A DNA stretch of 64,000 nucleotides, from contig CAZCXF010000003.1 of assembly GCA_964502615.1 (NCBI GenBank), positions 8,962 through 72,961 on the forward strand, read 5' to 3'. A model generated the notes under the pieces. It saw only the letters and a list, made by a program, of their open reading frames with translations, was not told where the DNA came from and searched no databases. The position numbers and the translations under genes are program-made. Origin of the DNA: an uncultured Candidatus Saccharibacteria bacterium (GTDB lineage: Bacteria > Patescibacteriota > Minisyncoccia > Phycocordibacterales > UBA9973). Below are positions 101 to 29,677 of this stretch, piece after piece (the first letter of the stretch is position 1; every line of letters begins with the position of its first letter).

Positions 101-307
101 ATGAAAAAAATAGTAATTTCGCTAATAAACACATATCAGAAAATACCTCTTAAATCACACAATTCATGTGTCTTTATACCCACATGTTCTCAATATACAA
201 AAGAATCTATTGAAAAACATGGTTTAAGCAAAGGCCTCTTACACGGGTTTTTAAGGATTTGTAGATGTCATCCTTGGCAAAAAAACCATTATGATCCTAT
301 AAAATAA
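101..307 (+). CDS. yidD: membrane protein insertion efficiency factor YidD
   Basis: 68 aa with the conserved IPTCSQY...RCHPW motif of the YidD family; sits immediately upstream of yidC. Confidence 0.8.
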   Translation: MKKIVISLINTYQKIPLKSHNSCVFIPTCSQYTKESIEKHGLSKGLLHGFLRICRCHPWQKNHYDPIK

Positions 308-1563: not shown

Positions 1564-2559
1564 CTAATGACCGTTTGTTGACCAGTGCCAATTCTCTATT
1601 GGTAAATTTCTCAAACCATATTTACTAGAGTTTTGACTTAACCAATCAAAACAAACTTTTGTAGATCCTACTATTGGGAATCTATTTTTCCTTCCAGTTC
1701 CTATGTTTATAAGTGAACCGTTACATTTTAAATCAAAAGCTAACCCTGTTTCGTGCATAGACGTTCCAGGATATGCTGTAGTTGGATTACATTTTGCATT
1801 TTTATTAAATTCATTTCCAACTCCACAATTTGCTCTTCTAGTTGCTATTTGTTCGGCTGGAGTTCTAAATCCTCCACCTGAAATTTTTAATCCAGCAGCA
1901 TTAGCATCAGCTATCATTTGTTTAAACTTTGCAGAAATTGATTTACAAGCGATAAATCTCACTGTAACAGTTTTTACTTCCTCTACCCCCTCTGGACATT
2001 TTGAAGTCTTGGCACCTGTTGAAGGAATAACTGTTTTTTCGTTAGATAGGATTGGATCTCCATCAACACTAATATCATTACTAACCTGATCCAACGTCAA
2101 TCCGTCTTTCCCTGTCAGTGCCGGATCTATGGTGTTTAAAATAGCATATGCACCAAGAGCAAGTAATAACCCCCCAATAGGACCCCAAATCTTCTTTTTA
2201 AGCTCTGCTTTCTCAGTAAATGACTCACTAGTCATATACGATATACCATGGATTATTAGCATAATAACTGCCAATACTCCACATATACCAATAGCTACAT
2301 TAAATAGAATATTAAAATACTTACCTATATCATTCGTCTCTATCTTCTCTAACCCTGGTAATGGAGCAAGGAGACAATATATATTTTCGTCTCTTTTAGT
2401 TTTTTCGTCCTTTTTAATACAAGGGTCACCTGACGGTTTATCCTTTTCAGCATTTATTGTAACTGGAGTATCCCCTGTCCCAGCATAAATATTAATAACA
2501 GAAATAGATAGATTAAATATTACTATTAGTGTTACAAGAAATACTTTTAAAGGTTTCAT
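1564..2559 (-). CDS. T4SS-associated cell-wall hydrolase: N-terminal signal/TM, VirB2/TrbC-like two-helix module, C-terminal M15 (VanY-like) metallopeptidase domain
   Basis: Two hydrophobic helices separated by a short charged loop (IGKYFNILFNVAIGICGVLAVIMLIIHG...KKKIWGPIGGLLLALGAYAIL). C-terminal SMHETGLAFD (SxHxxGxAxD) and ENWHW motifs of LAS/M15 peptidases. Paralog of 3978-5264. Confidence 0.55.
   Translation of the reverse strand: MKPLKVFLVTLIVIFNLSISVINIYAGTGDTPVTINAEKDKPSGDPCIKKDEKTKRDENIYCLLAPLPGLEKIETNDIGKYFNILFNVAIGICGVLAVIMLIIHGISYMTSESFTEKAELKKKIWGPIGGLLLALGAYAILNTIDPALTGKDGLTLDQVSNDISVDGDPILSNEKTVIPSTGAKTSKCPEGVEEVKTVTVRFIACKSISAKFKQMIADANAAGLKISGGGFRTPAEQIATRRANCGVGNEFNKNAKCNPTTAYPGTSMHETGLAFDLKCNGSLINIGTGRKNRFPIVGSTKVCFDWLSQNSSKYGLRNLPIENWHWSTNGH
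2078..2385. repeat. duplicated segment, copy A (paired with 4705-5012)
   Basis: ~308 bp recognisably similar with a ~118-bp core (2121-2238 vs 4748-4865) differing at about one position. Confidence 0.8.
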
Positions 2560-2560
2560 T

Positions 2561-3949
2561 TTAATTTAAATCCAAACTCCACAGCGTCCCATCTTTTTTA
2601 TTAATAAAATAAAGAGCAGTATTTTCTTTATTTAAAAATAAGTGCGTAGCATCTAAGTATTGATTACCTAAACTATCAACATCTGCAATACTTGAAACTT
2701 CTCCGGTTAAGCTGTTTATTTTTACAAAAGTATCATCAAAAGATGTCAATCCTTGGTACCAAGAATCTGGTTGTTTACTACCTAGAGTATCTGGTATTGC
2801 ACAATATATTGTTATATTATCATCTTTCCAAACACATTTTTCTGGTAAACCACCTATATTTAAATTAGAAATAAAATGGCTTGATGTGTTTAATAGATTT
2901 AATTCCGGCTCTGAATCATTATAAGAACTGTATAATACTACTAACCCATCTTTATTTGAAAGAGTTGTTAATCCTCTAACTCCACCAAGTATCTTCTTTA
3001 AAGTCCCGTTGGTCGTATTTAAACTAAATAGACTACCATTTACAGAACTCGATGCTCTTGTTGTAAGAAAAACATTAGAAGCACCTACCCATTGGGACAA
3101 CCACTCTGAATAAGGAGATGAAAAAACTTGAGATTTTTTATTATCATAAAACGATCTTACCCAACCGGAAATTCCATTTGAATTTTTTACAAGATAAAAG
3201 AATTGGGTTTTATCTGGAGATAAACTTAAATCAATAATGTTTGAAGGCAAAAACTCTCCTTTATCAGCCCCAAGGGTAGCAAAGTAACTACTTATTGTTT
3301 TATTATCTCCAGATAAATATCTGTAAATTATAGAAGAAGCTTTACTGTCAAAAATAGCTTCATATATTCCAGGAATCGTAGAGTTAGATATCTTACTTAC
3401 AGTTTTTGTATCTAAATACATTTGATAAATATGTCCTGTAACTTTTTCAACATACCTAAGAGAAGGAACAGTCTCTACTGTTGGAACGACTGGTTTTTTA
3501 TCTGCCACTTTTTTATTTTTAGTATTTATAGGTTCAGTTTTAGTTTGGGGCTTATCTCCACCTTTAAGTGGGACTTCAGTTGTTGTTTGAGCAGGCTCAC
3601 CACCCCCCTTAACTGGAATTTCATCTACAGGTAAAGGTCTAGTATCCTCAAAAAACGCAGCACCAGATACTGCAAAATCTGTTAACTGATGTAGTCTAAT
3701 TTTTGTTTCCCCTACTCCAACAATTTCAGGGTTATCTGAATTCTGATTTGAAGGATTCTCATTAACCAGAGTACTACTATCTGTAGTAGGTTGCTTAGTA
3801 TTAAAAAGACTGCCAAATAATCCATAAGCACTAGAGTTTGTGCCACTAGAAGAATTACTATTTTTTTTACTAGATATATAGTAAACCAAGAATACCAGGC
3901 CTACTAAAATAAACACAGATATAAAAATTATTTTCGTTTTACGTGGCAT
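2561..3949 (-). CDS. bitopic membrane protein with Pro/Thr-rich linker and large extracytoplasmic domain (VirB8/VirB10-like topology; function unknown)
   Basis: N-terminal TM, low-complexity Ser/Pro-rich region, long beta-rich C-terminus; embedded in the T4SS-like operon. Confidence 0.3.
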   Translation of the reverse strand: MPRKTKIIFISVFILVGLVFLVYYISSKKNSNSSSGTNSSAYGLFGSLFNTKQPTTDSSTLVNENPSNQNSDNPEIVGVGETKIRLHQLTDFAVSGAAFFEDTRPLPVDEIPVKGGGEPAQTTTEVPLKGGDKPQTKTEPINTKNKKVADKKPVVPTVETVPSLRYVEKVTGHIYQMYLDTKTVSKISNSTIPGIYEAIFDSKASSIIYRYLSGDNKTISSYFATLGADKGEFLPSNIIDLSLSPDKTQFFYLVKNSNGISGWVRSFYDNKKSQVFSSPYSEWLSQWVGASNVFLTTRASSSVNGSLFSLNTTNGTLKKILGGVRGLTTLSNKDGLVVLYSSYNDSEPELNLLNTSSHFISNLNIGGLPEKCVWKDDNITIYCAIPDTLGSKQPDSWYQGLTSFDDTFVKINSLTGEVSSIADVDSLGNQYLDATHLFLNKENTALYFINKKDGTLWSLDLN

Positions 3950-3977
3950 AGATTAACCCTTTAATTGTACCATAAAA

Positions 3978-5264
3978 CTATTTATCCTGAGCTACACATT
4001 GAGTATACAAATCAGCCCTAATAGGGGCTTCAGTATTCATAAATTTTCCACCCCCACTACAACTACCAGATCCATACGCTCTATAAGTTTGTTCAATGTT
4101 TTTGCCACATTTCTTATAGTTGTTATTCATAATATAAGCACCCAAAAGAATATCAACCATAGGATCATATAAATCTTTTGCGAATATTCTCTGATGACCA
4201 GGTATTGTTGTTTGAATACCTACCGTATAGTCTGCGTACTTTGAGCCCTTAGGGTAAAGCGTTACACCTAAAAGGCCTATTCCATGAGAAAACCTCCAAT
4301 CGAGACCTAAATCTTGAGCATTTGGGTTTAAAGCAGAATAAGGTTTACCTTGTATATGTTCTGTGTTTTTAAAAGAACCCTTTTCAATCAAAGTGTTATC
4401 TGGAGTAAAAGTTGTACCATCATACTTTTTACCAGAAGCAATAAATTCTCTTCTTGATTTAATTCCAGATGATGCAGCATCTTCATCGTGACCAACAAGA
4501 CCTTCAATACCTCCAGATTCTCTTTGTATTGCAGCTTGAAGTAAGCAGTGTGGAATATTATACTCAGGTTTAGCAGCTATTTCCTTTATAGTATTATAAT
4601 ACTTAGTTCTTTTAAACTTTTTTGTACTTGGATTTGATTGAGTTTCAATAAGTCTTATTTGTTGACCTTCAGATAAGGTAACATTAGGGTCAATATTTAT
4701 GTTGTTACTAACCTGATCCACCGTCAGCCCCTCCTTCCCCGTCAGCGCCGGATCTATAGTGTTTAAAATAGCATATGCACCAAGAGCAAGTAATAACCCC
4801 CCAATAGGACCCCAAATCTTCTTTTTAAGCTCTGCTTTCTCAGTAAATGACTCACTAGTCATATAACTAATCCCATGAATGATTAGCATGATAACTGCAA
4901 GCACTCCACATATACCAATAGCTATATTAAAGAGTATATTAAAATACTTCCCTATATCATTAGTTTCTATGCTCTTTAGCCCTGGAAGTGGAGCCAGGAG
5001 ATTGTAGGTGGTGTTGTTTGAAGGTTTACCGTTTTCAGCATTTATTGTAACGGGAGTATCCCCTTTTTTATAACAAAAAGTATTACCATTAATATTTTTT
5101 AGAGCATCTGAACACAATTCTTTTGTGGCGTATGGTCCTTGTACAACATTAGCAGTATCTAAGAAATACCACTCTTCTTCAGCAGAAACAAAAGCAACTT
5201 GAAAAGAAAGGAAGATATTAAATATTACCGTTAGTATTAATAGATATATATTTAACTTCTTCAT
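3978..5264 (-). CDS. T4SS-associated cell-wall hydrolase: VirB2/TrbC-like two-helix module fused to lytic transglycosylase (SLT-like) domain
   Basis: Same TM module as 1564-2559, near-identical at DNA level. C-terminal LLQAAIQRESGG catalytic-glutamate motif typical of family-1 lytic transglycosylases. Confidence 0.5.
   Translation of the reverse strand: MKKLNIYLLILTVIFNIFLSFQVAFVSAEEEWYFLDTANVVQGPYATKELCSDALKNINGNTFCYKKGDTPVTINAENGKPSNNTTYNLLAPLPGLKSIETNDIGKYFNILFNIAIGICGVLAVIMLIIHGISYMTSESFTEKAELKKKIWGPIGGLLLALGAYAILNTIDPALTGKEGLTVDQVSNNINIDPNVTLSEGQQIRLIETQSNPSTKKFKRTKYYNTIKEIAAKPEYNIPHCLLQAAIQRESGGIEGLVGHDEDAASSGIKSRREFIASGKKYDGTTFTPDNTLIEKGSFKNTEHIQGKPYSALNPNAQDLGLDWRFSHGIGLLGVTLYPKGSKYADYTVGIQTTIPGHQRIFAKDLYDPMVDILLGAYIMNNNYKKCGKNIEQTYRAYGSGSCSGGGKFMNTEAPIRADLYTQCVAQDK
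4705..5012. repeat. duplicated segment, copy B (paired with 2078-2385)
   Basis: See copy A. Confidence 0.8.
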
Positions 5265-5265
5265 T

Positions 5266-6261
5266 TTATAGTGTTAGGTTTAACTTCCCAGCAACTTTTT
5301 GGAATAAGAAATTCAAATTTTCCATAACTAAGTCAATAGTTGCATAACCACCTCTTTCTGCAGGTCTAACAGTTAGTTCTGTTTTTTTGGATGGAGTGTC
5401 AATTGTTTCACCGTTTATTTTCCAGTTATAAGAAAAATTTACCTCGTTACCATCTAATGCCAAGAAGTACGGTTCAGCAACTAAAGTAACTTCATCTTCT
5501 GAAATTAAAGTTCCGTCTGTTAATGCGTTGTTATATAAAACCCCCTCAGTAGGTGATTTCTTATAAAATATAATTTTTGGATTAACAATTGGTATATCTA
5601 TTGTTTTAGTAGCATTATATTTCCCATCTATAGATGAAGCTTGAACAGATATATTTTCTTTTGTTTTTAGTTGATCGTTGGAGAAAATATAATAATCTTT
5701 TCCGTAACCAGAAGCACTCTGTACAGCATTGTCGTCATTTTGCCAAGCGTAAGTAATATTACCCTTACCCTTCGTTATAATGTTTGTGTTTGGAATAGCA
5801 ACTACTTTTATTGTACTTTCTCTGGATGGGAAAGATTTACCTCTATAAAAAGGTGGAGTATAAGATCCTATACTTTCCCACATAAGCTCGACTTCAGAAG
5901 TTTTTATTGTAACCTTTTTTGTAAATTTATCTGCACTATCTGGCGGTGTTATTGTAATATAAAAATCCGTTGTAAGATCTGGTCCTGGTGCTTGAAAAGA
6001 ATAAGAAAGTTTTCCATAACCAGATAATAATATTTTTGAACCATTATGCCATTCAATAAAAGCTTTATTTAAGTCAGTAGCATAACTAGATATTTTTATA
6101 GTAACATCCCCATATGGTTCTGGATTTTCTGGTATGGTTGTTACATCTATGTCTCCATCTTGGAGTCCTACTTCGGAAGCATGGGTTAATAAACTTGGAG
6201 TTAACAAAACACCAAGCACCAATAGACCAAAACCGATAGTTTTCATTTTTAAGAATATCAC
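5266..6261 (-). CDS. secreted beta-rich protein, unknown function (T4SS operon member)
   Basis: N-terminal signal peptide (MKTIGFGLLVLGVLLTPSLLTHA); no recognised domain. Confidence 0.3.
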   Translation of the reverse strand: MIFLKMKTIGFGLLVLGVLLTPSLLTHASEVGLQDGDIDVTTIPENPEPYGDVTIKISSYATDLNKAFIEWHNGSKILLSGYGKLSYSFQAPGPDLTTDFYITITPPDSADKFTKKVTIKTSEVELMWESIGSYTPPFYRGKSFPSRESTIKVVAIPNTNIITKGKGNITYAWQNDDNAVQSASGYGKDYYIFSNDQLKTKENISVQASSIDGKYNATKTIDIPIVNPKIIFYKKSPTEGVLYNNALTDGTLISEDEVTLVAEPYFLALDGNEVNFSYNWKINGETIDTPSKKTELTVRPAERGGYATIDLVMENLNFLFQKVAGKLNLTL

Positions 6262-6304
6262 CTATATATTATATGATAACTTACTTTGGATTGCCAATTT
6301 AGCT

Positions 6305-8137
6305 TTATTGCTTATTTGCTTGTGCCAAGTCATCCTTTGCTTTTTTTATAGCTAGTATTTGTGATGGATCTGAAGTAATTATCTGATCTTCTGTATATGA
6401 AGCGATAGTTTTTACTGCAACGTGTTTAAGCCCAGCAAAGAATATCCCTTCCCCAACATTTGCTTCCAATAATAGGTATTTTTCTTCATCTGTTAGATTA
6501 AAAGTTTTCTGGAGTACATCAACAGTTGACGGAGATTGTTTTAATAGTAGTTGAATAGAAGTGATGGTAACAATAGGCACTGCATAAGGACTCTTCATGA
6601 AGTCGCCAACATCTTGAGTGATAGTTGCAAGTCCAAGGTAGTATTTACGCCCACGTTTAGCAATAGAATATAGGAATGAAGCGGTATCTTCAGATTTCAT
6701 CATCCACCAAGCCTCATCAACCACAAGAAGTCTCTTTTTAATATTTTTACGAACAGCGTTCCATATATAGTGTGTGACTATGTACATTGCGACTGGTTTT
6801 AGTTCGTCTTCCATGTCTCGAACTGAAAATACTACGAACTTTCGATTTATATCTACGTTTGAAGGTTGATTCAAAAATGATGCCCAAGATCCGTGAGTGA
6901 ATTTTGTTAAACGCTGTATTAATGATGCACTTCCCTCCATTCCAGCAAGCACCATCTCAAAGTCAGTAAGAAGTGGTGGTTCAATGTTTGCAAAATTTGA
7001 GTCAGGAGTAATATCTTTTAAAGCGTACGTTTCAGTGATAGCTCGATCGATAATTGAATCTTCTTCTGGAGTAAGGCCTCCAAGCATTATACGAAATAGA
7101 CCTACTAAGTTTATAGTGTTTGCACGAAGGACATCAGCTGGTGTTTCATCTGCTGTAGGTATTGGAAGATCAAAAGGATTGATATGGTGATCAGAAGAAA
7201 GAGCAATATTGAAGTATCTTCCACCAACAGCTTCGGATAAATATTCATACTCTCTTTCTGGGTCAATAACAATAACTTCAGTATCAAACATAAGAGTACG
7301 AATAACTTCAAGTTTAGTAGCATAAGATTTTCCCGCACCAGAAGTCGCGAAAGTTATAGAATTGTAGTTTGGAAGAGAGAATCTATCAAATATAATAAGA
7401 CTAGAGTTATGACGATTTACCCCATAAAGAATTCCTTTGTCAGAGGTTAGATCAAAAGATACGAAAGGAAATAAACTAGAAAGTGGCTCGGTATTTAACT
7501 TTTGATGTATTCCCAAAACATCAGTTCCCAGAGGAATTACACTTTTAAAAGCTTCATCCTGTTGGAATAGTGCTGGTTTTAGATATATAAGTTTTGATTC
7601 CAATAAAGATTTAATTTCACTTTCTATTTTAAATAAGTCATTTTCATTATCAGCATAAACTGTAATATAAAGACCAACATCAAACATTTTTTCCTGTGCC
7701 TGCATTAGGTTATCGCGCAAACTCTCTAGATCTCTATAAGCAGTATCGAGCATTGGGTCACGAACAAGACCTTTAGATTCTCGAATAGATATCTGGCTTT
7801 GAACTTCTGCAACTTTATTTTGAAAAGTATGAAGCACATCCACAGTGTCTATAGGATGTATAAATATTGAAACATCAAAAACTTTGTCCAGGTTTATTAT
7901 TGGTGAAAACCAGTTATCAGTAAGATATCTTGGATATGATATGACAAAGAAAGTTCGAGCAATTTTATCTCCAAGATTAAGCGATTTTGGTGTGATTTGG
8001 AGTGCAGATGGTGCAATAATATCTTGAAGCTCTAGTACAGCAGCTTTATATATTTCAGCAGGCAAAACAGGCATAACCATATTTTTAGGTTTTGTTATGT
8101 CGTTCTTTTTCCCAAATAATGATGAAAATATACCCAT
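6305..8137 (-). CDS. virB4: VirB4/TrbE/CagE-family T4SS ATPase (ATPase domain)
   Basis: Walker A FATSGAGKSYATK and Walker B LLVVDEAWWMM; size and motif spacing as in VirB4 C-terminal AAA_10 domain. Confidence 0.8.
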   Translation of the reverse strand: MGIFSSLFGKKNDITKPKNMVMPVLPAEIYKAAVLELQDIIAPSALQITPKSLNLGDKIARTFFVISYPRYLTDNWFSPIINLDKVFDVSIFIHPIDTVDVLHTFQNKVAEVQSQISIRESKGLVRDPMLDTAYRDLESLRDNLMQAQEKMFDVGLYITVYADNENDLFKIESEIKSLLESKLIYLKPALFQQDEAFKSVIPLGTDVLGIHQKLNTEPLSSLFPFVSFDLTSDKGILYGVNRHNSSLIIFDRFSLPNYNSITFATSGAGKSYATKLEVIRTLMFDTEVIVIDPEREYEYLSEAVGGRYFNIALSSDHHINPFDLPIPTADETPADVLRANTINLVGLFRIMLGGLTPEEDSIIDRAITETYALKDITPDSNFANIEPPLLTDFEMVLAGMEGSASLIQRLTKFTHGSWASFLNQPSNVDINRKFVVFSVRDMEDELKPVAMYIVTHYIWNAVRKNIKKRLLVVDEAWWMMKSEDTASFLYSIAKRGRKYYLGLATITQDVGDFMKSPYAVPIVTITSIQLLLKQSPSTVDVLQKTFNLTDEEKYLLLEANVGEGIFFAGLKHVAVKTIASYTEDQIITSDPSQILAIKKAKDDLAQANKQ

Positions 8138-8138
8138 A

Positions 8139-8792
8139 TTATTGTAATTTAATTCCCCTACTAATATCTCCTGGGTTGAAAGTCTTATAGAAAAGCTCTA
8201 CTTCTTCTTCTGTTGTTAGTTGACTGCTTCTAATACCGAGTCCTCCAAGTCCTGAAATTATAACATTAACTCTTTGGTCCAACTGGCTTCGTTTTTCTTC
8301 AAAGGAAGCCATTTCGAGAGCTTTCTTTGTATTTTCAACAGCTTTTTTTGTTTCGCCTCCGCCTATAATTTTATCAAGTAACCCGTCCCCTGATTTTAGT
8401 ACTGTTGGACTATAAGGCACTACAACGAAAAAGGTTTTAGTCATTATATTTACTTCATCAGTAAACGCTCTGATAAAATCAATATATTCTTTTGTTTGTA
8501 TTTTTAGAAGTTTTTCGTTTTGAACCTTGAGCCTTTCTTCAAGCATTCCTAAGTATGGCCTAATATCTAGTCTTCTTGATTGCATAACGATCTGGGTTGA
8601 AAAATCTAAACCATTTAAAAAAGATTGAAATTGACTAATTATAGCTGCTTGCTCATCTGCAGATTTAAGAGAAAGGTTTATAGAAGAGGCAATCAAGACA
8701 GCTCGAAGTCCCCCATCTTTTAAAATGATAACCCCATTTCTTACTTCTTTTATTGGTACAAATTCTTGAGCTGCGCGTGCGTTTATAGCCAT
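8139..8792 (-). CDS. probable VirB4 N-terminal domain, encoded as a separate ORF (split virB4 or frameshift)
   Basis: 217 aa soluble protein directly abutting the VirB4 ATPase ORF (stop TAA, 1 nt, ATG, different frame). 217+610 aa matches a canonical VirB4 (~800 aa). N-terminal sequence resembles the N-terminus of Firmicutes VirB4 homologues (from memory, not verified). Confidence 0.35.
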   Translation of the reverse strand: MAINARAAQEFVPIKEVRNGVIILKDGGLRAVLIASSINLSLKSADEQAAIISQFQSFLNGLDFSTQIVMQSRRLDIRPYLGMLEERLKVQNEKLLKIQTKEYIDFIRAFTDEVNIMTKTFFVVVPYSPTVLKSGDGLLDKIIGGGETKKAVENTKKALEMASFEEKRSQLDQRVNVIISGLGGLGIRSSQLTTEEEVELFYKTFNPGDISRGIKLQ

Positions 8793-8813
8793 AAGTTTAT
8801 TATATCATGTTAC

Positions 8814-9227
8814 CTACTCCTTATTATTCTCATCAGGCTGCACATCCAAACTCCAAGATATATCTCTTAATTTACTAGAAGAGAGAACTGGTAGAACTGA
8901 AGTTTGCGGGAGGGCCTCTTCTTCTTTGTTTGCATCCTTGGGTTTAGCTAGACGCTGTTTCCATATATACAGCTTGTTTGAAATAGCATAATTTATCGCT
9001 GCTTGGAGGTAGTATATAAAAGGCTTATTGTTTATCTTGTAAAAAGTTAAAAGGCCTGCTAGAAGCCCGACTGGTAGTATCAACAAAATTGCTATCCAAA
9101 AAGGTAGAAGTTTGTATAGAACAAATATCATTCCAGCACCCCCTGCCATGTATACGAACTGTCTAAAAGTAAAAGGACCAAAAAGTTTATCCTCAACGTC
9201 TATAAATTGTGGAACTTTAAATTGCAT
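8814..9227 (-). CDS. PrgI-family / VirB3-like small membrane protein
   Basis: N-terminal KVPQFIDVEDKLFGPFTFRQF motif followed by two TM helices; located directly upstream of virB4 as in Gram-positive T4SS loci (prgI-prgJ). Confidence 0.55.
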   Translation of the reverse strand: MQFKVPQFIDVEDKLFGPFTFRQFVYMAGGAGMIFVLYKLLPFWIAILLILPVGLLAGLLTFYKINNKPFIYYLQAAINYAISNKLYIWKQRLAKPKDANKEEEALPQTSVLPVLSSSKLRDISWSLDVQPDENNKE

Positions 9228-9247
9228 ATCCTAATTGTATCACAAAA

Positions 9248-10282
9248 CTATATTGCTTCGTGATAAGGATCGTGGGGTTTTTCTGCGGCAACTACTGGTT
9301 GAGAGTTGTTTGGTGGAACTATTTCAGGAGTACTATGATTTATCTTAGGGATAGTTTGGTTGCTAACAACAGGTTTGCTTACAGTAGGAGCACTTAATTT
9401 ACTACCAATAATACTTTTCATAACATCTTCTTTTTCAGGCTCGTTACTAACCATCTCAATACCAGCGCTTTTATAGATACCCGATTCAGTTTTTGGTGTT
9501 TCTTCAATTGGTTTTGGTATTGTGGAAGCAAAAGTTTTTGGAGTCTCAGGTTTTGCCACTACTGCATAGGGTGGAATTGGCACCTCATCTTCTCCTTCTT
9601 GTGCCACCCCCTTACTTTTTTCCCAATTATTTCTTAAAATCTCACGAATATTTTTTAAAATATCTTCATTTACATTATTTACTATCTCACTAACTACAGT
9701 AGGGCTTACTCCTAGCTTACTGTTTAATTCTTCTTCATATTTATCTGGGTGAATTGTATTAAGAATTACTTTATTAGTGGCTTCCTCAAGTGTCTGCATT
9801 TGATCTATCGATAGATTTTTCTCAGTAGCTATATTTACCAGTTTTAATTGATATCCTGATTCAACAATAGCATCTTTAACTTCTTTTGGTAAGGTATTAA
9901 ATTTTTCATCGAGTTTTCTAGTATCACCATATTTCTCTTCAACAAGAGATTTTGTGTTGTCCTCATAAGCTTTATTTAAACTATCGGATATCGGTTCTAT
10001 TATGGATTCGTTTATTTCGGCTGTGATCCTCTCTAGTAAATCATCTGATACACCCAACTCATCGAATAAAATATCTATATAATTTTCCTTACTTATAACA
10101 CCCAAAAGTAGTAAAGTTGTCTCTGTCCCTAAGGTTTCTTTTTGACTAGTACTTAGATCGTGTGCCTGACTAATCTCTTGCAATGTATCCATCCATTTCA
10201 TATTAGAAAAGAATTCTTGTACATCTGGTGGAAGTTTTGTGTATGCTTCAGCTATTTTTTGTTGTAATTGTGTTTGATCCAT
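9248..10282 (-). CDS. acidic soluble protein of unknown function (T4SS operon member)
   Basis: 344 aa, no TM, Glu/Asp-rich; position between VirB6-like and PrgI-like genes. Confidence 0.3.
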   Translation of the reverse strand: MDQTQLQQKIAEAYTKLPPDVQEFFSNMKWMDTLQEISQAHDLSTSQKETLGTETTLLLLGVISKENYIDILFDELGVSDDLLERITAEINESIIEPISDSLNKAYEDNTKSLVEEKYGDTRKLDEKFNTLPKEVKDAIVESGYQLKLVNIATEKNLSIDQMQTLEEATNKVILNTIHPDKYEEELNSKLGVSPTVVSEIVNNVNEDILKNIREILRNNWEKSKGVAQEGEDEVPIPPYAVVAKPETPKTFASTIPKPIEETPKTESGIYKSAGIEMVSNEPEKEDVMKSIIGSKLSAPTVSKPVVSNQTIPKINHSTPEIVPPNNSQPVVAAEKPHDPYHEAI

Positions 10283-10292
10283 AAATTATACT

Positions 10293-12992
10293 TTAATGAT
10301 GCCCTCCTTTATCCCCATGCCCTTTATCTTCTTTATGATCGTCTCCCCCACCATGTGCATCTTTAACTTTTACTTTAGTGTGTACTTCTATATGTTTAAG
10401 AGTATCACCTAAGGTTGCCTTCAAGTCCTTTAAGAAGTCCTTTTGTGAAGTGCCATGATCCATTCCTCCAGAAAGTTTCTTGAGTCCCATTCTCATTAGA
10501 CCAGAAGTGTGAGCAGCAAGCCCAGCTCCTATTAAAGCACTAGCTCCTCCTGTAAATGCTGCTGCAGCTAAACCAAGAGCGGTAATAGCATTATGATCCA
10601 TATCTCTTAAGTCCATGGTTCCCTTAGTTGCCATATTCAATACGTCATTTCTTAAGTTGTAACTAGGAACTTTGTTATAGGTTTTCTCTAAATGCTCTGC
10701 ATCGTGGAACTTACTAGGATCCTTACCAAGGTTTGTGGCATATGTATTTAATATATTTGTATTTACTTTACCACTATTGTCATCCACTGATCTATTTACC
10801 ATTGCATTTTCTCCCGCACTTAGTTTACTTACATCTTTTCCGTTAAACAGGAATTTTGCCACTTCAGCTTTGTTAGCGCTCTTTCTAGCCTTTTCCTGAT
10901 CACCTTGGTCAAGTTCTGAATATTTTTTACCCTTTTGTATTTTATCTGCATGTTCATCAAGTACATGTTCTGCGTGAGCTTTGTCGCTTTTCTCACTTTT
11001 CTCCTTCTTATTCTTATCTATTCTTTGTTTCAACCAAGTATTACCGACTACATTCTTTCTTTGTACTTCATTTTTACCAGTTTTAGGGTTCGTTCTTATT
11101 ACAGGTTTACCAGTAGTAGGATCGCGTTCTACTACTTTTTTAACACCTAAACCTACATTTGCCATTTTTGCGCTTATAGCCTTGCCGTAAGTCTTTGGGT
11201 TATACCACTGCTTTTTGAATTTATCTATTGCAGCGTCTCTTGTAGTCTGACTAGATTGAGCCATCTTAAGTGGATTTGAAATAAAACCTCTTCCAAGAGC
11301 TGCAATTCCACCAGAAGCTAAAGCTGCTCCACCAACAAGCGCACCCCCTCCGATAACGGCAGCTTTTGTTACCATAGAACCAATATCACCAGCAAATTGT
11401 GTGGCTAGTTTTTTTGCCTTCATCATTAATATCATTATGAAAGCAAAAGGGACAATTATCCCGAGCACAAAGTCTGTGCCACTAGTACCGTTTAATTTTG
11501 GCAAAAAATCTCCACCTACGAATTTTAAAATCAGATACATGAAAAACATGAAAATAGGGGCCAAGAACGACAATTTTAAAGTATTATCCCACCATTTTGA
11601 CCAACCTATTGCCTCAATATTTTTCATTGCTGGAACCATGTAAGAAAAGAAAGCTATTGGTACTAATATCATTGCTATCCAAAGGCCTATAACTCTACCA
11701 ATCATAAGTAATCCGACAGATAAAAAAACAATCATTCCAACGATATTAACAATAGATGCAAGAAGTGTTACCAAAATAAAAGTACCAACACTGACACCTT
11801 TTGATAAGTCATCTTCAAGTCGGGAACTAGCATTTCTGTTCGGGTCGGTAGATCCAACCCTAGCTGCTTTTATTATTAATTTTTGTGGGTCTACAGCTTT
11901 CACTACTGCAATAGATAGTTGTTTTTCACCACTTTTTCCAAGAGCCTCAGTTTTATTTTCTGGATTTGCTTTATCTGAAGTTGTAACCGTTGTTGCGCTA
12001 TAGAAAACTCTAGCTAGTATATTCGAAGCATCAATAATAACTCTTGTGGCAAATAAACTAAAGTTCATTAAAATACCTATGATTACAACATTCATAATCA
12101 TCTCTTTGGTTTTGAATCCATGTATATTTAGTATTGTGGAGAAAGCAATCCAAAGAAGTACAAAAATAAAGAAAATATTTACAAAATCACGAACTATACC
12201 CCACCCACCAGTAACAAAAGTGTTGGTATAGGCTTTATCTCCTACTGAGTAAAAAAAAGAGAAGTCAAAAAACTTTCCAGTCAATTCAAATAAAAATGAA
12301 GTTGGTTTAAATAAGATTGTATACAATATCTGAGCAAAACATCCACCAATATTTACTCTAAAAACAGCTTTTGTACACCAAGGTAGATATCCAGCATCTG
12401 AGTTTATGGTTGCAAGTTCTTCAGTCTCGCTGTCTTCAACCTCTCCTGCTTTAGTTGTACTGATTTCAACATCGTATCTTGGATAAGCTAAACTTTCACC
12501 AGAAGTGTCACCTGCATAACCAAAGTAACTTACATAGTAAGTTTTTTCTGGAGTTAGATTATTTATTGTTTTTTCTACAACCCCATTTTTCTTAAAATCT
12601 ATCCAGTTACTACTACAACCATCTCTACCACCATCAATTTTAGATCCTTCTGGAATTGAGAAAAAACTCTCATTTATAGAACATCCAGAATCATGAGCCA
12701 TGTAAAAATCTAGTAATGCTAAATTTTCTTTTGATATAGTAGTACCTGGTTTATCTGTAACTATCACTACTAAACCTTCATGGTCTGTGTTTGATAATTG
12801 TGTTATGTCAAAAGCGAAACTTATGGATGTACTAGTTCTTTTCTTTTTTAATATTGTTATAGAAAGGTCAGCGCTAGCTACAGATTTTTTTAGAATAGGA
12901 ACTCCATCTTTTATGCTAACCGTAAAAGGCGCGAAAAGATTCACGAGAATAAGGGTTATTAGGATTGAAGGTATAATTTTTCTCATTCGCAA
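10293..12992 (-). CDS. VirB6/TrbL-like polytopic T4SS channel protein with N-terminal extracellular domain and Lys-rich / His-rich C-terminal tail
   Basis: Signal peptide, ~230 aa extracellular region, multiple TM helices (aa ~260-560), long hydrophilic C-terminus ending HGGGDDHKEDKGHGDKGGHH; position upstream of prgI-like/virB4 as prgH in Gram-positive T4SS. Confidence 0.5.
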   Translation of the reverse strand: MRMRKIIPSILITLILVNLFAPFTVSIKDGVPILKKSVASADLSITILKKKRTSTSISFAFDITQLSNTDHEGLVVIVTDKPGTTISKENLALLDFYMAHDSGCSINESFFSIPEGSKIDGGRDGCSSNWIDFKKNGVVEKTINNLTPEKTYYVSYFGYAGDTSGESLAYPRYDVEISTTKAGEVEDSETEELATINSDAGYLPWCTKAVFRVNIGGCFAQILYTILFKPTSFLFELTGKFFDFSFFYSVGDKAYTNTFVTGGWGIVRDFVNIFFIFVLLWIAFSTILNIHGFKTKEMIMNVVIIGILMNFSLFATRVIIDASNILARVFYSATTVTTSDKANPENKTEALGKSGEKQLSIAVVKAVDPQKLIIKAARVGSTDPNRNASSRLEDDLSKGVSVGTFILVTLLASIVNIVGMIVFLSVGLLMIGRVIGLWIAMILVPIAFFSYMVPAMKNIEAIGWSKWWDNTLKLSFLAPIFMFFMYLILKFVGGDFLPKLNGTSGTDFVLGIIVPFAFIMILMMKAKKLATQFAGDIGSMVTKAAVIGGGALVGGAALASGGIAALGRGFISNPLKMAQSSQTTRDAAIDKFKKQWYNPKTYGKAISAKMANVGLGVKKVVERDPTTGKPVIRTNPKTGKNEVQRKNVVGNTWLKQRIDKNKKEKSEKSDKAHAEHVLDEHADKIQKGKKYSELDQGDQEKARKSANKAEVAKFLFNGKDVSKLSAGENAMVNRSVDDNSGKVNTNILNTYATNLGKDPSKFHDAEHLEKTYNKVPSYNLRNDVLNMATKGTMDLRDMDHNAITALGLAAAAFTGGASALIGAGLAAHTSGLMRMGLKKLSGGMDHGTSQKDFLKDLKATLGDTLKHIEVHTKVKVKDAHGGGDDHKEDKGHGDKGGHH

Positions 12993-13035
12993 TATGATAT
13001 TAATTATATCATATCTATAGATTTAGCTTGAGTAT

Positions 13036-13815
13036 TTACCAGATATTTAGTTGATATTCTAAGTCTTGGTATTGTGATGGAGCGTAAAAATCTGGTTTTA
13101 TATTAAAGTCTCCATAGTAAGGGTTGTTTTTAGTAGCCTTAGGACCTGTATATTTTACATCCCTCTTTTGGTCTTTACATTGAAGAGTCAAAGTATCTGC
13201 GTGATCAATTAGATCTTGGTTCCTTTTAATATCAGCATTGATCATCGCTACTTCATCGGCAGTTTTTAACTCAGGGGCTATTAGATAATACTGACGAAGT
13301 AAGTCAGCTAACTCATCTTTTTCAGCATCGGTGTATTCTAGTTCCTCATCTATTGGACAAACTTTTGGACTCTCATCTTTTTTTGGTTCTGGTGTTGGAG
13401 TCGGTTTTGGTCCACCACCTGTTCTTACTATTGGCTCATTCCCTACACTTATACCTTCTCCTGGTGTTGGAATAGGATTAAAAGGTGCTGTTATTCCACT
13501 TTTTTTGTTTACAGTTCCTCCTACATCGCCCCCTGGAACCTGGTTTATATCACTACCACCATTATTCTGTGTATTGTTTTTTGTGTTAGTGTTTTGGTCG
13601 GTATTTTCTGTTTCAGTATTAGTTTTATCTACAGTATCAACAGTCTTTTGTTTTGGTGTACCAAGTAATGGGGAGAATAGTTTTGTAATAGATTGATTTT
13701 TGGTCCCAAAAAGTTTATCACTATTTTTAAATAGTAGATATGCAACCACAACAAGCACAATAATTGAAATTATTGTTATTATGAGAGCTTTACTTTTTTT
13801 AGGATTGTTTTCCAT
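13036..13815 (-). CDS. bitopic membrane protein with Thr/Asn/Pro-rich linker, unknown function
   Basis: N-terminal TM, low-complexity linker, conserved-looking C-terminal domain. Confidence 0.3.
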   Translation of the reverse strand: MENNPKKSKALIITIISIIVLVVVAYLLFKNSDKLFGTKNQSITKLFSPLLGTPKQKTVDTVDKTNTETENTDQNTNTKNNTQNNGGSDINQVPGGDVGGTVNKKSGITAPFNPIPTPGEGISVGNEPIVRTGGGPKPTPTPEPKKDESPKVCPIDEELEYTDAEKDELADLLRQYYLIAPELKTADEVAMINADIKRNQDLIDHADTLTLQCKDQKRDVKYTGPKATKNNPYYGDFNIKPDFYAPSQYQDLEYQLNIW

Positions 13816-13819
13816 ATAT

Positions 13820-16678
13820 CTATTGTGCGACTTTTATTAATGTACCCTCTGGTTCAAGTGGGGCGTAATCTTTGATTATCTGTTGTTTGTTCTTAATGAT
13901 CGGTAAAGGTCTATCATCTGAAGCAATAATTTTTCCGTTATAGTCAGTAAAGGTTACTTTTTCTTTTAATAAACAAGTTGGACTTATTTTTGTTCCACCT
14001 TCCTTTGCTATTTTATCTGCTCTTCTCTTTTGAGCAGCAGCGATTATTTCGTTTACTCTTTTTTGTATTGCCTTTAGCTTATCTAAGTTTGGAGTTGCTT
14101 CTGCTAGCAAATCTCTTGAATCATTTTTTGCAGCTTCAACCTCTTCTATATAATCTGGAATATTTTTGGTAAGTTGAAGCCCTTCTTGTGCTGCTGGAAG
14201 GTATTTTGTATTTCCCTTCCAATAGTTTTGCATTGGACTAGCAAGTCCATAAGTTGCATCTATGTATTCCTCAAATCCATCTAAAGTTGCAAGAAGTTTT
14301 GCAGGGTCTAATCCTGTATTTTCTGGAGCGATCATTTTTAATATTGAATCACGATCTGTTCCGATTGTATTTGCTATAAAGATTGGATCGAGAGGCCTTT
14401 TACCAGCAAGCATATCGTCTCTAATCTTCTCATTCTTTATTCTAATTCTTTCATTGTCTGCTTCTATTGCAGCTCTCTGTTCTTCGTAATTTCTGTAATC
14501 TTTTGCTTCTTTAAATTTCTTTCTTATCTGATTCATTCCTGCAAGCGGGTTTACTATGAAACTGAGTCTCTTTAATAGTGAAACCTTCTTTTTTACAGGC
14601 TTGTCTGGCAACGGTTGAGGATATTCGTAGGTACCATCTGGAGCGTATTCTATTGTATTACCTACATTTCCAACATCATTTACACTATTTAGGGTAGAAA
14701 GATATTCGTCAATTGCTTCTTTAGAATTTTCTCTCCAGTTAGGATTTGGACCAGGTATACAATAATCAAGTTCACCAAGTGCTGGTAATACATCTGCAAT
14801 AACACCTTTGTATATTCCCATCGCATCTATATAGTCGTATTGATTTTGTATTACCCCCTTCTTGATTAATACCCCATCTTGATCATATATGTTTCCAAGA
14901 TCTTTTGTTATATCAAATCCATCGTCTTTTATGTATGTATGAGGAGTTTTAATTGGACCGCCACCTCCTGTTGTCGCACCTCCTCCATTTGAAGTTGGAT
15001 TACCTCCAGAACCTACTGTAACTCCTGTAGTTGTTGAAACTGGAGTACTACCTGTACCAAAAATAGTGTCGTCAACATTTACATATCCATCTTCATCGAA
15101 AGTTATTGATTGAGTAGTTGTTCCGCCAGATGCAACAGTTGTTATGTTTTTAGCTGGGTCAAGTCCTGCTAATCCTTGGTTTTCAAATTTAGCTAGAAGC
15201 ATTGTAAACAAAGCATTTAATGCATCGTTCATTGTTTTTACTAGTTCAAGTTGTCTCTCAGGAGTGTTTAGGTAAGTGTTTGCTTTTGCAGCTATAGCAC
15301 TTCCTGGGGTTACTGTTTCCCACTCTTTACACTTTTTTTCTGCAGGTGCCTTACCACCATTGGTACTGCATGAAGAGATAAGACCAGAATATTCTGATTC
15401 TACATTAGTCTTACAAGAGTTTATTGCTGCAGGAGTCTTGTTGTCAGTTTCACATGTTTGAAGTGAGTCAGTCTTTTGAGATTCATAATTTGATTTACAA
15501 CTATTAATTTCTGCAGGAGTTGGACCAGCTGGAGTTTCATAAACTTTACACTTTTGCTGAGGTCTGTATCCTTGTCCTTGAACTAATTCAGCCTTAGCAT
15601 TTTCAACCTTATCTTGTTGTTTTGAAGAAATATTTTCAGTACTTAGTGCTATAAAACCAAGTGGATTGTTTTTATCATCTTGAGTTAGTCTTGACCAGCC
15701 ACTCCATCCACCCTTTGTGAAATCATTAGAGAAATCTTCTATTGTTGCTCCAGGTTCTAAGTAATTTGTTAAATCTTGTTTCATAGAAGAAGTAAAATCT
15801 TTTGCAAGTTGTTGCGTAGAGATTGCTCCTCGAGCAAAATCTCTACCATACGGGTAATCAGCACCATTCATCGGATCTTTAAATAATCTTGTTTCTTGAT
15901 CTAAAATGCTATTTTCTATGTCACTATAATATTTACTAAGATTATTAACATAAAAAGAATTACCACTAAATCCAGTATTTATCCAGTTCATAGTATATTT
16001 TGTCATTGCAGAAAGCTGATTTTTTGCAAGTTGTATGGCTATACCATTTAAACAGTTCTCTCGATATTCTTTTTTTGCTTCTTTTGTATCTGTATCCTTT
16101 TTGTCCTCATGCTGTTTTTCTGAAGCATCATCAAGTTTTTTCTCAACGCCAGGGACTTCTGCATGCTCTTCTGTTAGGTTTCGATTTGCTATGTTTTCAA
16201 TTCCTTTACCAGCACCGGTTCCTAATTGGGTTCCTGTTCCTACTACTGTTGTAGTAGTGGCACCAAGCGCAGTTTGAATCACTCCAGTTATTACAGTAGT
16301 AACTATATTTTTAGTGTTTTTTGCTAGTTGTTTTTTTGCCCAATCTTGCAATTTCTTTTTTGCCTTATCTACCAATTTATTTGCAACCTTGTTTACAGCT
16401 CCAACAATTTTGTCTGAAACTTTGTTTACTATTCCAGTACAGCCTACAACTTGAGAAAGAAGCCTTGGATTTATAAAATCTTTAACTTTGGGTTTGAAAG
16501 GGTTATCACCATTATTTGGATTGTCGTAGTTAAGTGGAGCAGATGCTTGACCTGATGGAGTTGATTGAGGCGAGCCTGTTGCTATACCTGCGTATACTTG
16601 TAAAGGCAAAATAGTTTCCACTAAGAATAAGGCTATGACTAGAGTAGAAATGATTTTTCTTGTAGTTCCTTTATTCAT
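13820..16678 (-). CDS. large secreted protein with Cys-rich short repeats and Gly/Thr-rich region (candidate surface adhesin)
   Basis: Signal peptide; repeated P(A/T)EINSCK(S/T)N...SC units; 952 aa; no catalytic motifs recognised. Confidence 0.35.
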   Translation of the reverse strand: MNKGTTRKIISTLVIALFLVETILPLQVYAGIATGSPQSTPSGQASAPLNYDNPNNGDNPFKPKVKDFINPRLLSQVVGCTGIVNKVSDKIVGAVNKVANKLVDKAKKKLQDWAKKQLAKNTKNIVTTVITGVIQTALGATTTTVVGTGTQLGTGAGKGIENIANRNLTEEHAEVPGVEKKLDDASEKQHEDKKDTDTKEAKKEYRENCLNGIAIQLAKNQLSAMTKYTMNWINTGFSGNSFYVNNLSKYYSDIENSILDQETRLFKDPMNGADYPYGRDFARGAISTQQLAKDFTSSMKQDLTNYLEPGATIEDFSNDFTKGGWSGWSRLTQDDKNNPLGFIALSTENISSKQQDKVENAKAELVQGQGYRPQQKCKVYETPAGPTPAEINSCKSNYESQKTDSLQTCETDNKTPAAINSCKTNVESEYSGLISSCSTNGGKAPAEKKCKEWETVTPGSAIAAKANTYLNTPERQLELVKTMNDALNALFTMLLAKFENQGLAGLDPAKNITTVASGGTTTQSITFDEDGYVNVDDTIFGTGSTPVSTTTGVTVGSGGNPTSNGGGATTGGGGPIKTPHTYIKDDGFDITKDLGNIYDQDGVLIKKGVIQNQYDYIDAMGIYKGVIADVLPALGELDYCIPGPNPNWRENSKEAIDEYLSTLNSVNDVGNVGNTIEYAPDGTYEYPQPLPDKPVKKKVSLLKRLSFIVNPLAGMNQIRKKFKEAKDYRNYEEQRAAIEADNERIRIKNEKIRDDMLAGKRPLDPIFIANTIGTDRDSILKMIAPENTGLDPAKLLATLDGFEEYIDATYGLASPMQNYWKGNTKYLPAAQEGLQLTKNIPDYIEEVEAAKNDSRDLLAEATPNLDKLKAIQKRVNEIIAAAQKRRADKIAKEGGTKISPTCLLKEKVTFTDYNGKIIASDDRPLPIIKNKQQIIKDYAPLEPEGTLIKVAQ

Positions 16679-16711
16679 AATAGATTAATCACTATTTAGT
16701 ATAACACATTA

Positions 16712-17578
16712 TTAATTACCAGAAATGCCATCAATATCAGTCTCGAGTGCATCACTGTATTTTTTATAATTTATAAAAGATTTTATCCCAGACAGTGGGT
16801 CGCCTAGTAGATTTGTCATACCAACTATACTTTGTCCAACCTTTTCATAATTGTTTGCAAGGCTTATATGAGGGTTAACCAATGTATTCGGTACTGGTAT
16901 TTTTATAAACTCTGCTCCAAAATCTCTATAAGCCTTAGAAATTGAGTTTATTTGCTTGATAGCATTTGGGTCTTTGTTTACTAAGCCTTGGTTTATAAAA
17001 ATAAGCTCATCTCCAATGTTTTTATCTCCATATTTTATAACAAGATTTATAAAAGCTTCATAATAGTTGCTTATTGAATCAGGGTTAGATTCTACAACCT
17101 TAACCATATTTCTAGTATAAATATCATCAATAGGTGTAGCTTCAACCTTTTTACCAATAGCCTCAGATACTGCCTGGATGGAGTTTTGATCTAGTGTTCC
17201 ACTCTGCTGTAGAGACATAATAATAGAGAAAAAGTCACGAGAAAGTGCATCGTTTTCTGATATTGGTGTATCTCCGCCAGCTAAATCTGGCCTATCTTTG
17301 GCTATGGTTGCCCTCTTTGCCAAGATAAACTCCTTATTTTCTGGGCCATTTTTTGTTGGATCAAGCCCCCAAAGCTTTTCTTCCCAGTCTGGAATAGTGT
17401 TATTATTTGCATCTTGCTCAGTCAAACTTTTAACCACAAGCTTACTTTTAGGGAGAATTTTTGATTTGCCGCCAAAGTACCTAGCAATTTCATATATTCC
17501 TAAAACAATAGCAAGTATTATAGCAATAGCTATTACCCTATGTATGAATTGTTTACTCGGTAAATAATCTTGATTCAT
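16712..17578 (-). CDS. membrane-anchored protein, unknown function (first gene of T4SS-like operon)
   Basis: N-terminal TM helix; 288 aa. Confidence 0.3.
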   Translation of the reverse strand: MNQDYLPSKQFIHRVIAIAIILAIVLGIYEIARYFGGKSKILPKSKLVVKSLTEQDANNNTIPDWEEKLWGLDPTKNGPENKEFILAKRATIAKDRPDLAGGDTPISENDALSRDFFSIIMSLQQSGTLDQNSIQAVSEAIGKKVEATPIDDIYTRNMVKVVESNPDSISNYYEAFINLVIKYGDKNIGDELIFINQGLVNKDPNAIKQINSISKAYRDFGAEFIKIPVPNTLVNPHISLANNYEKVGQSIVGMTNLLGDPLSGIKSFINYKKYSDALETDIDGISGN

Positions 17579-24401: not shown

Positions 24402-24421
24402 ATAGTTAATTTTACTTTAGT

Positions 24422-27173: not shown

Positions 27174-27287
27174 CTCTGTTTAGACATTGTAATAGGTCTA
27201 TATTATAAAGTAAATAAATAATTTTGTCAAATCAGTATAATATTACTTTGTTTATAAGCCTTATTTTATCATTAAAGTAAATAAAAA

Positions 27288-27323: not shown

Positions 27324-27345
27324 GGCGTGGGTACGGATCAATGAA

Positions 27346-28292: not shown

Positions 28293-28311
28293 TCGACATA
28301 ATATGCCGGTA

Positions 28312-29676: not shown

Positions 29677-29677
29677 G

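Follow-up and report, generated by a model that had tools for sequence, protein, structure and literature searches.

A Patescibacteria-type type IV secretion system resident on a Paceibacteria chromosome, with pilin modules joined to predicted wall hydrolases

Twelve long minus-strand open reading frames (ORFs) in a 64,000-nucleotide (nt) stretch of contig CAZCXF010000003.1 (assembly GCA_964502615.1; hereafter the window, meaning the whole stretch analysed) run from 17578 down to 1564 as one operon, which we read with good confidence as a resident chromosomal type IV secretion system (T4SS) of Paceibacteria: a class-typical member of the Patescibacteria clade, descended from the monoderm conjugation apparatus (mating-pair-formation class FATA, MPF-FATA), that would serve as a conduit for host contact and not as a conjugation machine. 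That the system is a T4SS of Patescibacteria type is close to certain; that it acts as a non-conjugative conduit at the host interface is plausible, and we lean towards it. The system is already known, as its core parts, their order, the proximity of dnaA and the missing relaxase match the Patescibacteria T4SS of Wang et al. (2023) and Quiñonero-Coronel et al. (2025). In the latter survey VirB4 was found in 2,417 of 3,035 Patescibacteria genomes and formed a clade nested in MPF-FATA; TrsD was its commonest partner, PrgI and PF18895 pilins were reported, matches to VirB6 and VirB8 were scarce, and the Paceibacteria cluster lay near dnaA, dnaN, rnpA, rpmH and ksgA (PMC12102498). Host interaction rather than conjugation is also the published view (PMC10633639; PMC12102498; PMC12857230). 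The window therefore holds no new system; it is a clean and complete Paceibacteria example of the published one, with three details that are possibly new: a fusion of pilin and hydrolase, a TolB-like propeller at the position of VirB8, and a VirB6 recognized at the level of its fold.

The identity of the motor was established by several independent matches. The product of g8 (genes are numbered g1 to g12 from 17578 downwards; Table 1) scores 362.4 bits against a cut-off of 325 with the NCBIfam model NF045971 (conju_CD1110, a Gram-positive VirB4), aligning to profile positions 183-732 of 752, and matches the Pfam families P-loop_TraG (E 9e-23) and AAA_10. Among solved structures the closest match is the VirB4 C-terminal domain 4AG5 in the PDB (E 4e-35), followed by R388 TrwK (5e-5), and it carries a Walker A motif (ATSGAGKS at 264) and a Walker B motif (LLVVDE at 470). 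Because the curated cut-off is passed, 4AG5 is matched and the Walker motifs are present, we conclude that g8 is VirB4 and not an FtsK- or VirD4-type ATPase, in line with the original prediction, made from the sequence alone, which had preferred VirB4 over an FtsK/TraG-type enzyme. That prediction had also called VirB4 split. The split is genuine, and it consists of a conserved pair, a TrsD-like ORF beside virB4, not of a frameshift: the TrsD-like ORF stands apart from virB4 in all 77 related loci in which both ORFs were found, with a spacing that varies, while in the window the stop codon of g7 lies 1 nt ahead of the virB4 ATG. The N-terminal domain of VirB4 comes from g7, since g8 aligns only to residues 228-772 of pCF10 PrgJ (25% identity, E 4e-41) and g7 to the N-terminus of the model (NF045971 positions 2-117, below that model's cut-off). 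The g7 product also gives a weak match to the TrsD/TraD model NF041427 (E 3.8e-7; 30 bits against a cut-off of 200) and carries a precomputed PF26593 TraC-like mark in the source data. The membership of g6 in the PrgI family, which had likewise been proposed, is borne out by Pfam (PF12666, 41.2 bits against a gathering score of 27; TcpE, E 1.3e-5).

Relatives were collected by scanning one genome per GTDB species, which yielded 80 loci, labelled almost throughout as Paceibacteria, Nomurabacteria or Parcubacteria (some bear the automated label 'uncultured Saccharibacteria'); gene order was tabulated for 40 of them. VirB4 is 75-94% identical to the window protein across the 80 Paceibacteria genomes, as opposed to 25% for PrgJ, and this similarity alone suggests that g8 belongs to the Patescibacteria VirB4 clade. 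PrgI was found in 76 of the 80 loci. Median identities are 79% for VirB4, 60% for TrsD and 50% for PrgI, compared to 50% for yidC, 45% for jag, 54% for rsmA and 58% for pcrA, the flanking housekeeping genes of the same loci, and to 25-40% for the extracellular parts of the T4SS. VirB4 is thus better conserved than the housekeeping genes beside it, reflecting strong constraint on the motor.

The operon lies where it had been placed, between yidC-jag and rsmA-pcrA, with gene order and coordinates as first given, and the same flanks recur in most of the 40 tabulated loci. The predicted count of twelve packed genes is likewise right, but none of them overlap: neighbours are separated by gaps of 1-43 nt. 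The commonest order in the tabulated loci is pcrA, rsmA, g1, g2, (g3), g4, g5, PrgI, TrsD, VirB4, g9, pilin fusion and g11, and then jag and yidC in convergent orientation. In contigs of the same organism, yidD is followed beyond the start of the window by rnpA and then by dnaA and dnaN, which puts dnaA ~3 kb past the end of the operon. From the synteny in most of the 40 loci and the adjacency of dnaA and dnaN we conclude that the locus is resident, chromosomal and beside the usual origin region. The Pfam scans took in almost all non-overlapped ORFs of >=100 amino acids (aa) in the window, together with yidD (the short ORF 63651-63953 apart), and among the ORFs scanned there was no relaxase, no VirD4/TcpA coupling protein, no VirB11 and no VirB9/10, in agreement with the predicted absence of relaxase, VirD4, outer-membrane core and VirB11 from the window. 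The only recombinase in the window is a XerC/D-like tyrosine recombinase (42418-43365), 25 kb from the operon, a search for flanking repeats returned only chance-level matches of 25-37 nt, and the GC content of the operon is even (0.33-0.37). An integrative and conjugative element (ICE) or other genomic island was accordingly rejected on synteny, even composition and the absence of repeats and of a nearby integrase, and the predicted core chromosomal setting stands, with dnaA next door; the context is not that of a mobile element, the location and its neighbours being the same in most of the tabulated loci.

The channel component is recognized less directly. VirB6 is known to be hard to detect by sequence in several classes (PMC12102498), and the proposal that g4 encodes a VirB6-like polytopic protein holds by fold and fails by sequence. 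From its N-terminus the g4 product has a beta-sandwich resembling FN3, then a helical core in the membrane and a C-terminal domain that is again helical, ending in a His-rich tail, and on its fold we assign it as a VirB6 homologue, a fold-level identification in this class. PF19590 marks that come precomputed on five g4 homologues were not reproduced in our Pfam scan and were not used. As a side observation, the His/Gly/Asp-rich C-terminus (10293-10360, HGGGDDHKEDKGHGDKGGHH) has a counterpart in the family consensus, which likewise ends HGGGGHH, and could bind metal.

g10 and g12 had been predicted to encode hydrolases with a transmembrane (TM) part. The hydrolases were found; the membrane part, which had gone unrecognized, is a VirB2-like pilin module of 90-100 aa, consisting of two hydrophobic helices linked by a basic loop behind a leader that resembles a signal peptide. 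In g10 the module, with its two TM helices, spans about residues 86-180 (DNA 4690-4989), and in g12 it occupies DNA 2063-2362. Against T4SS_pilin (PF18895) the two score 23.0 and 22.8 bits, respectively, below the gathering score of 26.6, and the Mbov_0395 pilin-like model gives 35 bits on g10 against a cut-off of 40. The family supplies the stronger evidence: a hidden Markov model (HMM) of the family's pilin module finds the window modules at E ~1e-36 (g10: 7e-36), and among 76 proteins at the pilin-fusion position in related genomes 63 match PF18895 (best E 4.7e-10) and 6 match TrbC/VirB2. At the C-terminus, the SLT domain of g10 is borderline (21.5 bits against 21.3) and has an ES motif at residues 249-250, while g12 matches VanY (PF02557) at 36.4 bits against a gathering score of 25 and retains intact zinc-ligand motifs (SMHETGLAFD, 267-276; ENWH, 322-325). 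Both are therefore predicted to carry VirB1-type extracytoplasmic wall-hydrolase domains with catalytic motifs, the enzyme being predicted to lie outside the membrane because a cleaved leader is followed by two membrane spans. Searching all frames of the 64 kb with the module HMM gave no further copy, so the only pilin modules of the window are the two fusions. Their pilin cores are near-identical in protein and 88% identical in DNA. Synonymous divergence (dS) is 0.50 and nonsynonymous divergence (dN) 0.067, values that rule out recent gene conversion between the modules and that point to an older duplication under purifying selection. g12 is the extra copy, missing from most relatives; two pilin-fusion genes occur in 4 of 70 related loci.

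The enzyme attached to the module differs widely between relatives. An ORF with the module follows g9 in 70 of the 80 related loci, with lengths of 131-774 aa and few stand-alone pilins. The C-terminal parts match NlpC/P60 (14), VanY or M15_4 (12), SLT families (6), YkuD (5), Amidase_5 (3) and Amidase_2 (1), and fall, by all-against-all BLAST, into at least 11 unrelated clusters and 15 singletons; the cluster varies even among genomes with a VirB4 87-94% identical to that of the window. The N-terminal extensions vary as well, from 30 to 480 aa, with matches to TIG, Big_1, Filamin and CBM_10. In each of five two-copy genomes, the two fusions carry different enzyme types. A library of 1.84 billion representative proteins contains 10,438 matches to the module at E <=0.001; among the best 140 single-module matches 134 have at least 100 aa beyond the module (median 181 aa), and ten further matches carry 2-7 modules per polypeptide. 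As an aside, P0368, P0372, P0378, P0418, P0471 and P0487 have 3-7 pilin modules each (P0471, of 1046 aa, has seven matched stretches), and such proteins would be pilin arrays fused into a polyprotein. In the searchable literature we found no description of pilin-hydrolase fusions in the Candidate Phyla Radiation (CPR), which does not prove that none exists. The sole modules in 64 kb are fusions, 134 of 140 library matches carry extensions, the C-terminal parts form at least 11 clusters, two-copy genomes pair differing types and the enzymes are predicted to lie outside. With these observations in view, one might imagine that the Paceibacteria pilin is a carrier of interchangeable peptidoglycan-degrading enzymes, held on the pilus or at its base and swapped as cassettes between lineages according to the host's wall chemistry. 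Such an 'armed' or drilling pilus would breach the envelope of the host; we consider this reading speculative and doubtful. The shuffled architecture does offer a handle on whether the machine attacks the host wall.

The order prgH-I-J-K-L, on which the operon had been modelled, holds up to the hydrolase and breaks down at the position of PrgL, where g11 has a beta-propeller in place of a VirB8-like fold. In the AlphaFold2 (AF2) model of g11 the mean predicted local distance difference test (pLDDT) score is 82.8 and exceeds 90 across most of the propeller, and Foldseek returns tricorn, TolB and WD40 proteins at E around 4e-10; a VirB8-like identity for g11 was rejected on this model. The gene was found in 65-67 loci, and some homologues carry PG_binding_1 (PF01471).

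The closest described system is that of Candidatus Southlakia epibionticum ML1 (SEML1_0004-0019), most genes of which are essential by transposon sequencing (Tn-seq; Wang et al., 2023, PMC10633639). Akin to the window operon it is chromosomal, lies near dnaA and has neither relaxase nor type IV coupling protein (T4CP) in the cluster; the core order is shared (VirB6-like gene, an intervening gene, PrgI, TrsD-like ORF, VirB4, then a hydrolase and exported proteins), and PF18895 pilin modules are present in both. The Saccharimonadia system has an array of six divergent pilins that stand alone, keeps its triple lysozyme in a protein of its own and includes an NTF2/VirB8-like protein that is not essential, whereas the window has pilin modules only as hydrolase fusions in its 64 kb and a TolB-like propeller in the place of VirB8. 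The staphylococcal Trs/Tra systems of pGO1 and pSK41, from the MPF-FATA subclass with TrsC, TrsD, TrsE and TrsG, resemble the window in their separate TrsD/TraD beside the VirB4 ATPase (PMC12102498), and in a PrgI/TrsC-like protein and a wall hydrolase; unlike the window, pGO1 is a plasmid with relaxase and coupling protein and has no VirB2-like pilin or recognizable VirB6. The pCF10 Prg/Pcf system shares the PrgI family and the order of VirB6-like protein, PrgI, VirB4, hydrolase and bitopic protein. In contrast to the window, its PrgJ is one polypeptide, its PrgH has no detectable similarity to g4, its PrgL is VirB8-like and not a propeller, and its T4CP PcfC and its relaxase are both encoded within 12 kb of prgJ. 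Compared to R388 Trw and other diderm VirB systems, the window lacks VirB7/9/10, VirB11, VirB5 and VirD4, g4 is enlarged by sizeable extra domains, and the pilin comes as a fusion with enzymes. The Mycoplasma ICE trio Mbov_0395, Mbov_0396 and Mbov_0397 provides the best or only NCBIfam matches of three adjacent window families, all below the equivalog cut-offs (pilin 35 against 40, g4 family faint, VirB4 243 bits). Mycoplasma ICEs are mobile, with a DDE recombinase and TraG, and have no hydrolase fusions, mycoplasmas being devoid of a cell wall.

How such parts might work together can be proposed by analogy with better-studied T4SS. VirB4, assembled from the TrsD-like protein and the VirB4 body, would dock on PrgI/VirB3 and the VirB6-like channel and energize assembly of the VirB6/VirB3-based membrane channel; it may also extract pilin modules from the membrane to build a short pilus or tube, and the tethered hydrolases would open peptidoglycan locally, in the bacterium's own wall and possibly in that of the host cell too. 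The resulting structure would be a contact-dependent conduit between symbiont and host for proteins or nucleic acids. Tubular structures, possibly T4SS pili, have been seen at the interface between a cultivated Minisyncoccota/Patescibacteriota parasite and its host (bioRxiv 10.64898/2026.06.21.733656).

Several points weigh against this picture. The sequence by itself gives no sign of cargo, direction of transport or pilus formation, and a coupling protein and more pilins could lie elsewhere in the genome; T4CP homologues occur in most Patescibacteria genomes, distant from virB4 (PMC12102498). Essentiality of the T4SS, which had been suggested as possible for the window operon, is known from Saccharimonadia alone, a different class (Tn-seq, PMC10633639). 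Some cultured Paceibacteria are reported to have archaeal hosts that lack murein; with such a host, the hydrolases could act only on the bacterium's own wall. Both window modules fall under the Pfam gathering score, and the pilin assignment therefore rests on the family. For VirB6, Pfam TrbL found nothing on 22 members of the g4 family, hhalign of a 66-sequence g4 profile with pCF10 PrgH gave a probability of 1.6%, and tblastn of the g4 membrane core against 72,556 plasmids returned zero matches. Nor was a VirB8-like component found, whether in the g11 model or by hhalign of the g1 and g9 family profiles with PrgL, to which neither shows similarity; of the bitopic proteins that had been suggested for a check against the VirB8 fold, g11 turned out to be a propeller.

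Among other explanations, import of DNA or other nucleic acids, comparable to Helicobacter pylori ComB or archaeal Ced, is a version of the host-interface conduit, compatible with it and not a competitor: the machine would bring host nucleic acids into a cell unable to make nucleotides. We regard this as a tentative possibility. It would suit the fact that neither a relaxase nor a T4CP, both of which processed DNA requires for its export, was found in the window; in reviews the T4SS figures among the candidate routes of nucleotide acquisition (PMC11665869), and a 2026 preprint, which sees tube-like structures, ties the VirB4 clade to RNA parasitism, linking polynucleotide phosphorylase (PNPase) and VirB4 with that way of life in this phylum (bioRxiv 10.64898/2026.06.21.733656). 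A ComM-like protein and a PNPase are encoded in the same window. NCBIfam CedB and CedD do match the P-loop region of VirB4 weakly, but these matches (CedB 33 bits against a cut-off of 700, CedD 15 against 600) reflect the shared P-loop only; moreover, the operon has no ComEC-like or ComB-specific component, and competence in S. epibionticum needs ComEC and type IV pili, with the T4SS requirement persisting upon deletion of comEC.

The abundance of wall enzymes raises another alternative, a T4SS-derived device that serves the bacterium's own envelope (wall remodelling, division or assembly of a surface organelle) with no transport between cells; it would insert peptidoglycan hydrolases, the TolB-like propeller and surface proteins into the cell's own wall. 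Two to four of the 12 products are related to peptidoglycan (SLT-like, VanY, and PG_binding_1 in g11 homologues), TolB-like propellers work in envelope maintenance, and the operon sits among housekeeping genes beside yidC. However, hydrolases of VirB1 type are usual accessories of T4SS, close relatives differ by exchange of the C-terminal enzyme, which would not be expected if it acted on a conserved wall of the cell's own, the extracellular components show the fast evolution of interface proteins, and pilin, VirB6, VirB3 and VirB4 constitute the substrate-channel and pilus module of every T4SS studied, making this explanation improbable. Least credible is that the operon is an ICE, or the domesticated remains of one, and still moves DNA by conjugation between Paceibacteria cells: its recognizable parts are indeed all of monoderm conjugation descent (CD1110-type VirB4, PrgI, TrsD, and pilin and membrane proteins like those of Mycoplasma ICEs) and coupling proteins are often encoded apart from virB4 (PMC12102498), yet with no relaxase, T4CP, adjacent integrase, att-like repeats or compositional shift found in the window, an identical chromosomal position in most of the 40 tabulated loci, a VirB4 more conserved than the neighbouring housekeeping genes and relaxases nearly absent from Patescibacteria (109 in 3,035 genomes; PMC12102498), we give it very little credence.

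The Patescibacteria T4SS is of interest beyond this genome: it is the first T4SS reported to be essential to its carrier, it is near-universal across a vast uncultured radiation, and its role is still described in reviews as completely unknown.

Table 1. Genes of the T4SS operon, its flanks and other annotated genes of the window (sizes in amino acids).
Feature	Position	Strand	Size	Assignment	Basis
yidD	101-307	+		flank beyond the 3' end of the operon	
yidC	349-1089	+		flank	
jag (R3H/KH)	1096-1563	+		flank, convergent with the operon	
g12	1564..2559	-	331	signal peptide, VirB2-like pilin module, C-terminal VanY/M15 peptidoglycan peptidase	
g11	2561..3949	-	462	bitopic: TM helix, disordered linker, TolB-like beta-propeller	AF2 and Foldseek
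g10	3978..5264	-	428	signal peptide, VirB2-like pilin module, C-terminal SLT-like lytic transglycosylase	
g9	5266..6261	-	331	secreted or anchored, N-terminal hydrophobic segment	
g8	6305..8137	-	610	VirB4 ATPase, central and C-terminal P-loop part	NF045971, Pfam, PDB, Walker motifs
g7	8139..8792	-	217	TrsD-like, VirB4 N-terminal domain as its own ORF	NF045971, NF041427
g6	8814..9227	-	137	PrgI/VirB3-like small membrane protein	Pfam
g5	9248..10282	-	344	acidic soluble protein, isoelectric point 4.6, Pro-rich tail, between VirB6-like gene and PrgI	
g4	10293..12992	-	899	extended VirB6-like polytopic membrane protein	fold level
g3	13036..13815	-	259	bitopic: TM helix (residues 5-36), low-complexity linker, small C-terminal domain	
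g2	13820..16678	-	952	N-terminal signal or anchor, 10 Cys, fast-evolving	
g1	16712..17578	-	288	bitopic membrane protein, one N-terminal TM helix (residues 8-37), lineage-specific	
rsmA (ksgA)	17605-18420	-		directly upstream of the operon	
pcrA/uvrD	18531-20447	-		helicase, upstream of rsmA	
comM/yifB-like	35511-37076			Mg-chelatase-family ATPase	
dksA/traR-like	37114-37509			zinc-finger protein	
PNPase	38404-40536			polynucleotide phosphorylase	

Five of the operon products are lineage-specific: g1, g2, g9 and g11, all associated with the envelope, and the acidic soluble g5. Searches of Pfam and NCBIfam with g1, g2, g3, g5 and g9 yielded no significant match, whether single proteins or families were used, and profiles of g1, g2, g4, g5, g9, g11 and the pilin fusions compared with all PDB sequences gave no match below E 0.04. 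g1 keeps its place behind rsmA in 35-39 related loci (~25% identity); its family consensus contains a DTDxDGIxDWEE motif, which resembles calcium-binding repeats of thrombospondin type and is degenerate in the window copy (17380-17430). g2, which is probably extracellular, has counterparts in 41-45 loci (~26% identity) and shares with them invariant Cys and LDYCIPGPNPNW-type motifs; it had been described as a large Cys-rich secreted protein, a label that is apt only against its neighbours, as these have 0-4 Cys. g3 is poorly conserved, being detectable in only 9-10 of the 80 loci, and its sole matches (SAG1386/EF1546, IcmG/DotF) are sub-threshold and run across the TM helix and linker. g5 has no TM segment, keeps its position in 43-51 loci and belongs to a family with an invariant C-terminal D-P-Y motif (window 9248-9260: DPYHEAI). 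g9 was found in 74-77 loci at ~34% identity, and its family shows faint Ig-like matches (BiPBP_C in 3 of 36 members, aBig_2 in one); a three-fold internal Ig-like repeat considered for g9 was dropped when self-BLAST showed none.

With regard to expression and replication, scans for promoters (over 19 kb) and terminators returned sites no more numerous than in shuffled sequence. The best sigma-70-like match in the 19 kb (TTGGCA, an 18-nt spacer and TATAAT; 11 of 12 positions; 6268-6297, minus strand) sits in the 43-nt gap between virB4 and g9 and might drive the distal genes from within the operon, although the scan as a whole gave fewer sites than shuffled sequence. The convergent layout against jag and yidC is kept in most of the 40 tabulated loci. 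If oriC lies in the rnpA-dnaA gap, as in most bacteria, the operon and ~30 kb of further minus-strand genes would be head-on to replication (window 1-32092; L081-L083); GC skew is uninformative on the origin because it tracks the coding strand.

Elsewhere in the window, a run of large orphan proteins and wall hydrolases (20487-33622) lies directly upstream of pcrA. It includes a 1304-aa protein of no family, an acidic 187-aa protein, a 735-aa protein with Amidase_2, an 804-aa orphan, a GH25 muramidase (28312-29070) and an M23 peptidase with LysM (32393-33622, plus strand), and it could be a second gene set for the envelope or for attack on a host. A NYN-domain nuclease, the XerC/D-like recombinase and a protein of the exonuclease/endonuclease/phosphatase family cluster at 41525-44163 with no adjoining tRNA gene or repeat, and are tentatively read as housekeeping genes. 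Finally, a 517-aa protein encoded at 33954-35507 has seven DUF5122 beta-propeller repeats (E 4e-80) and bears no sequence relation to g11.

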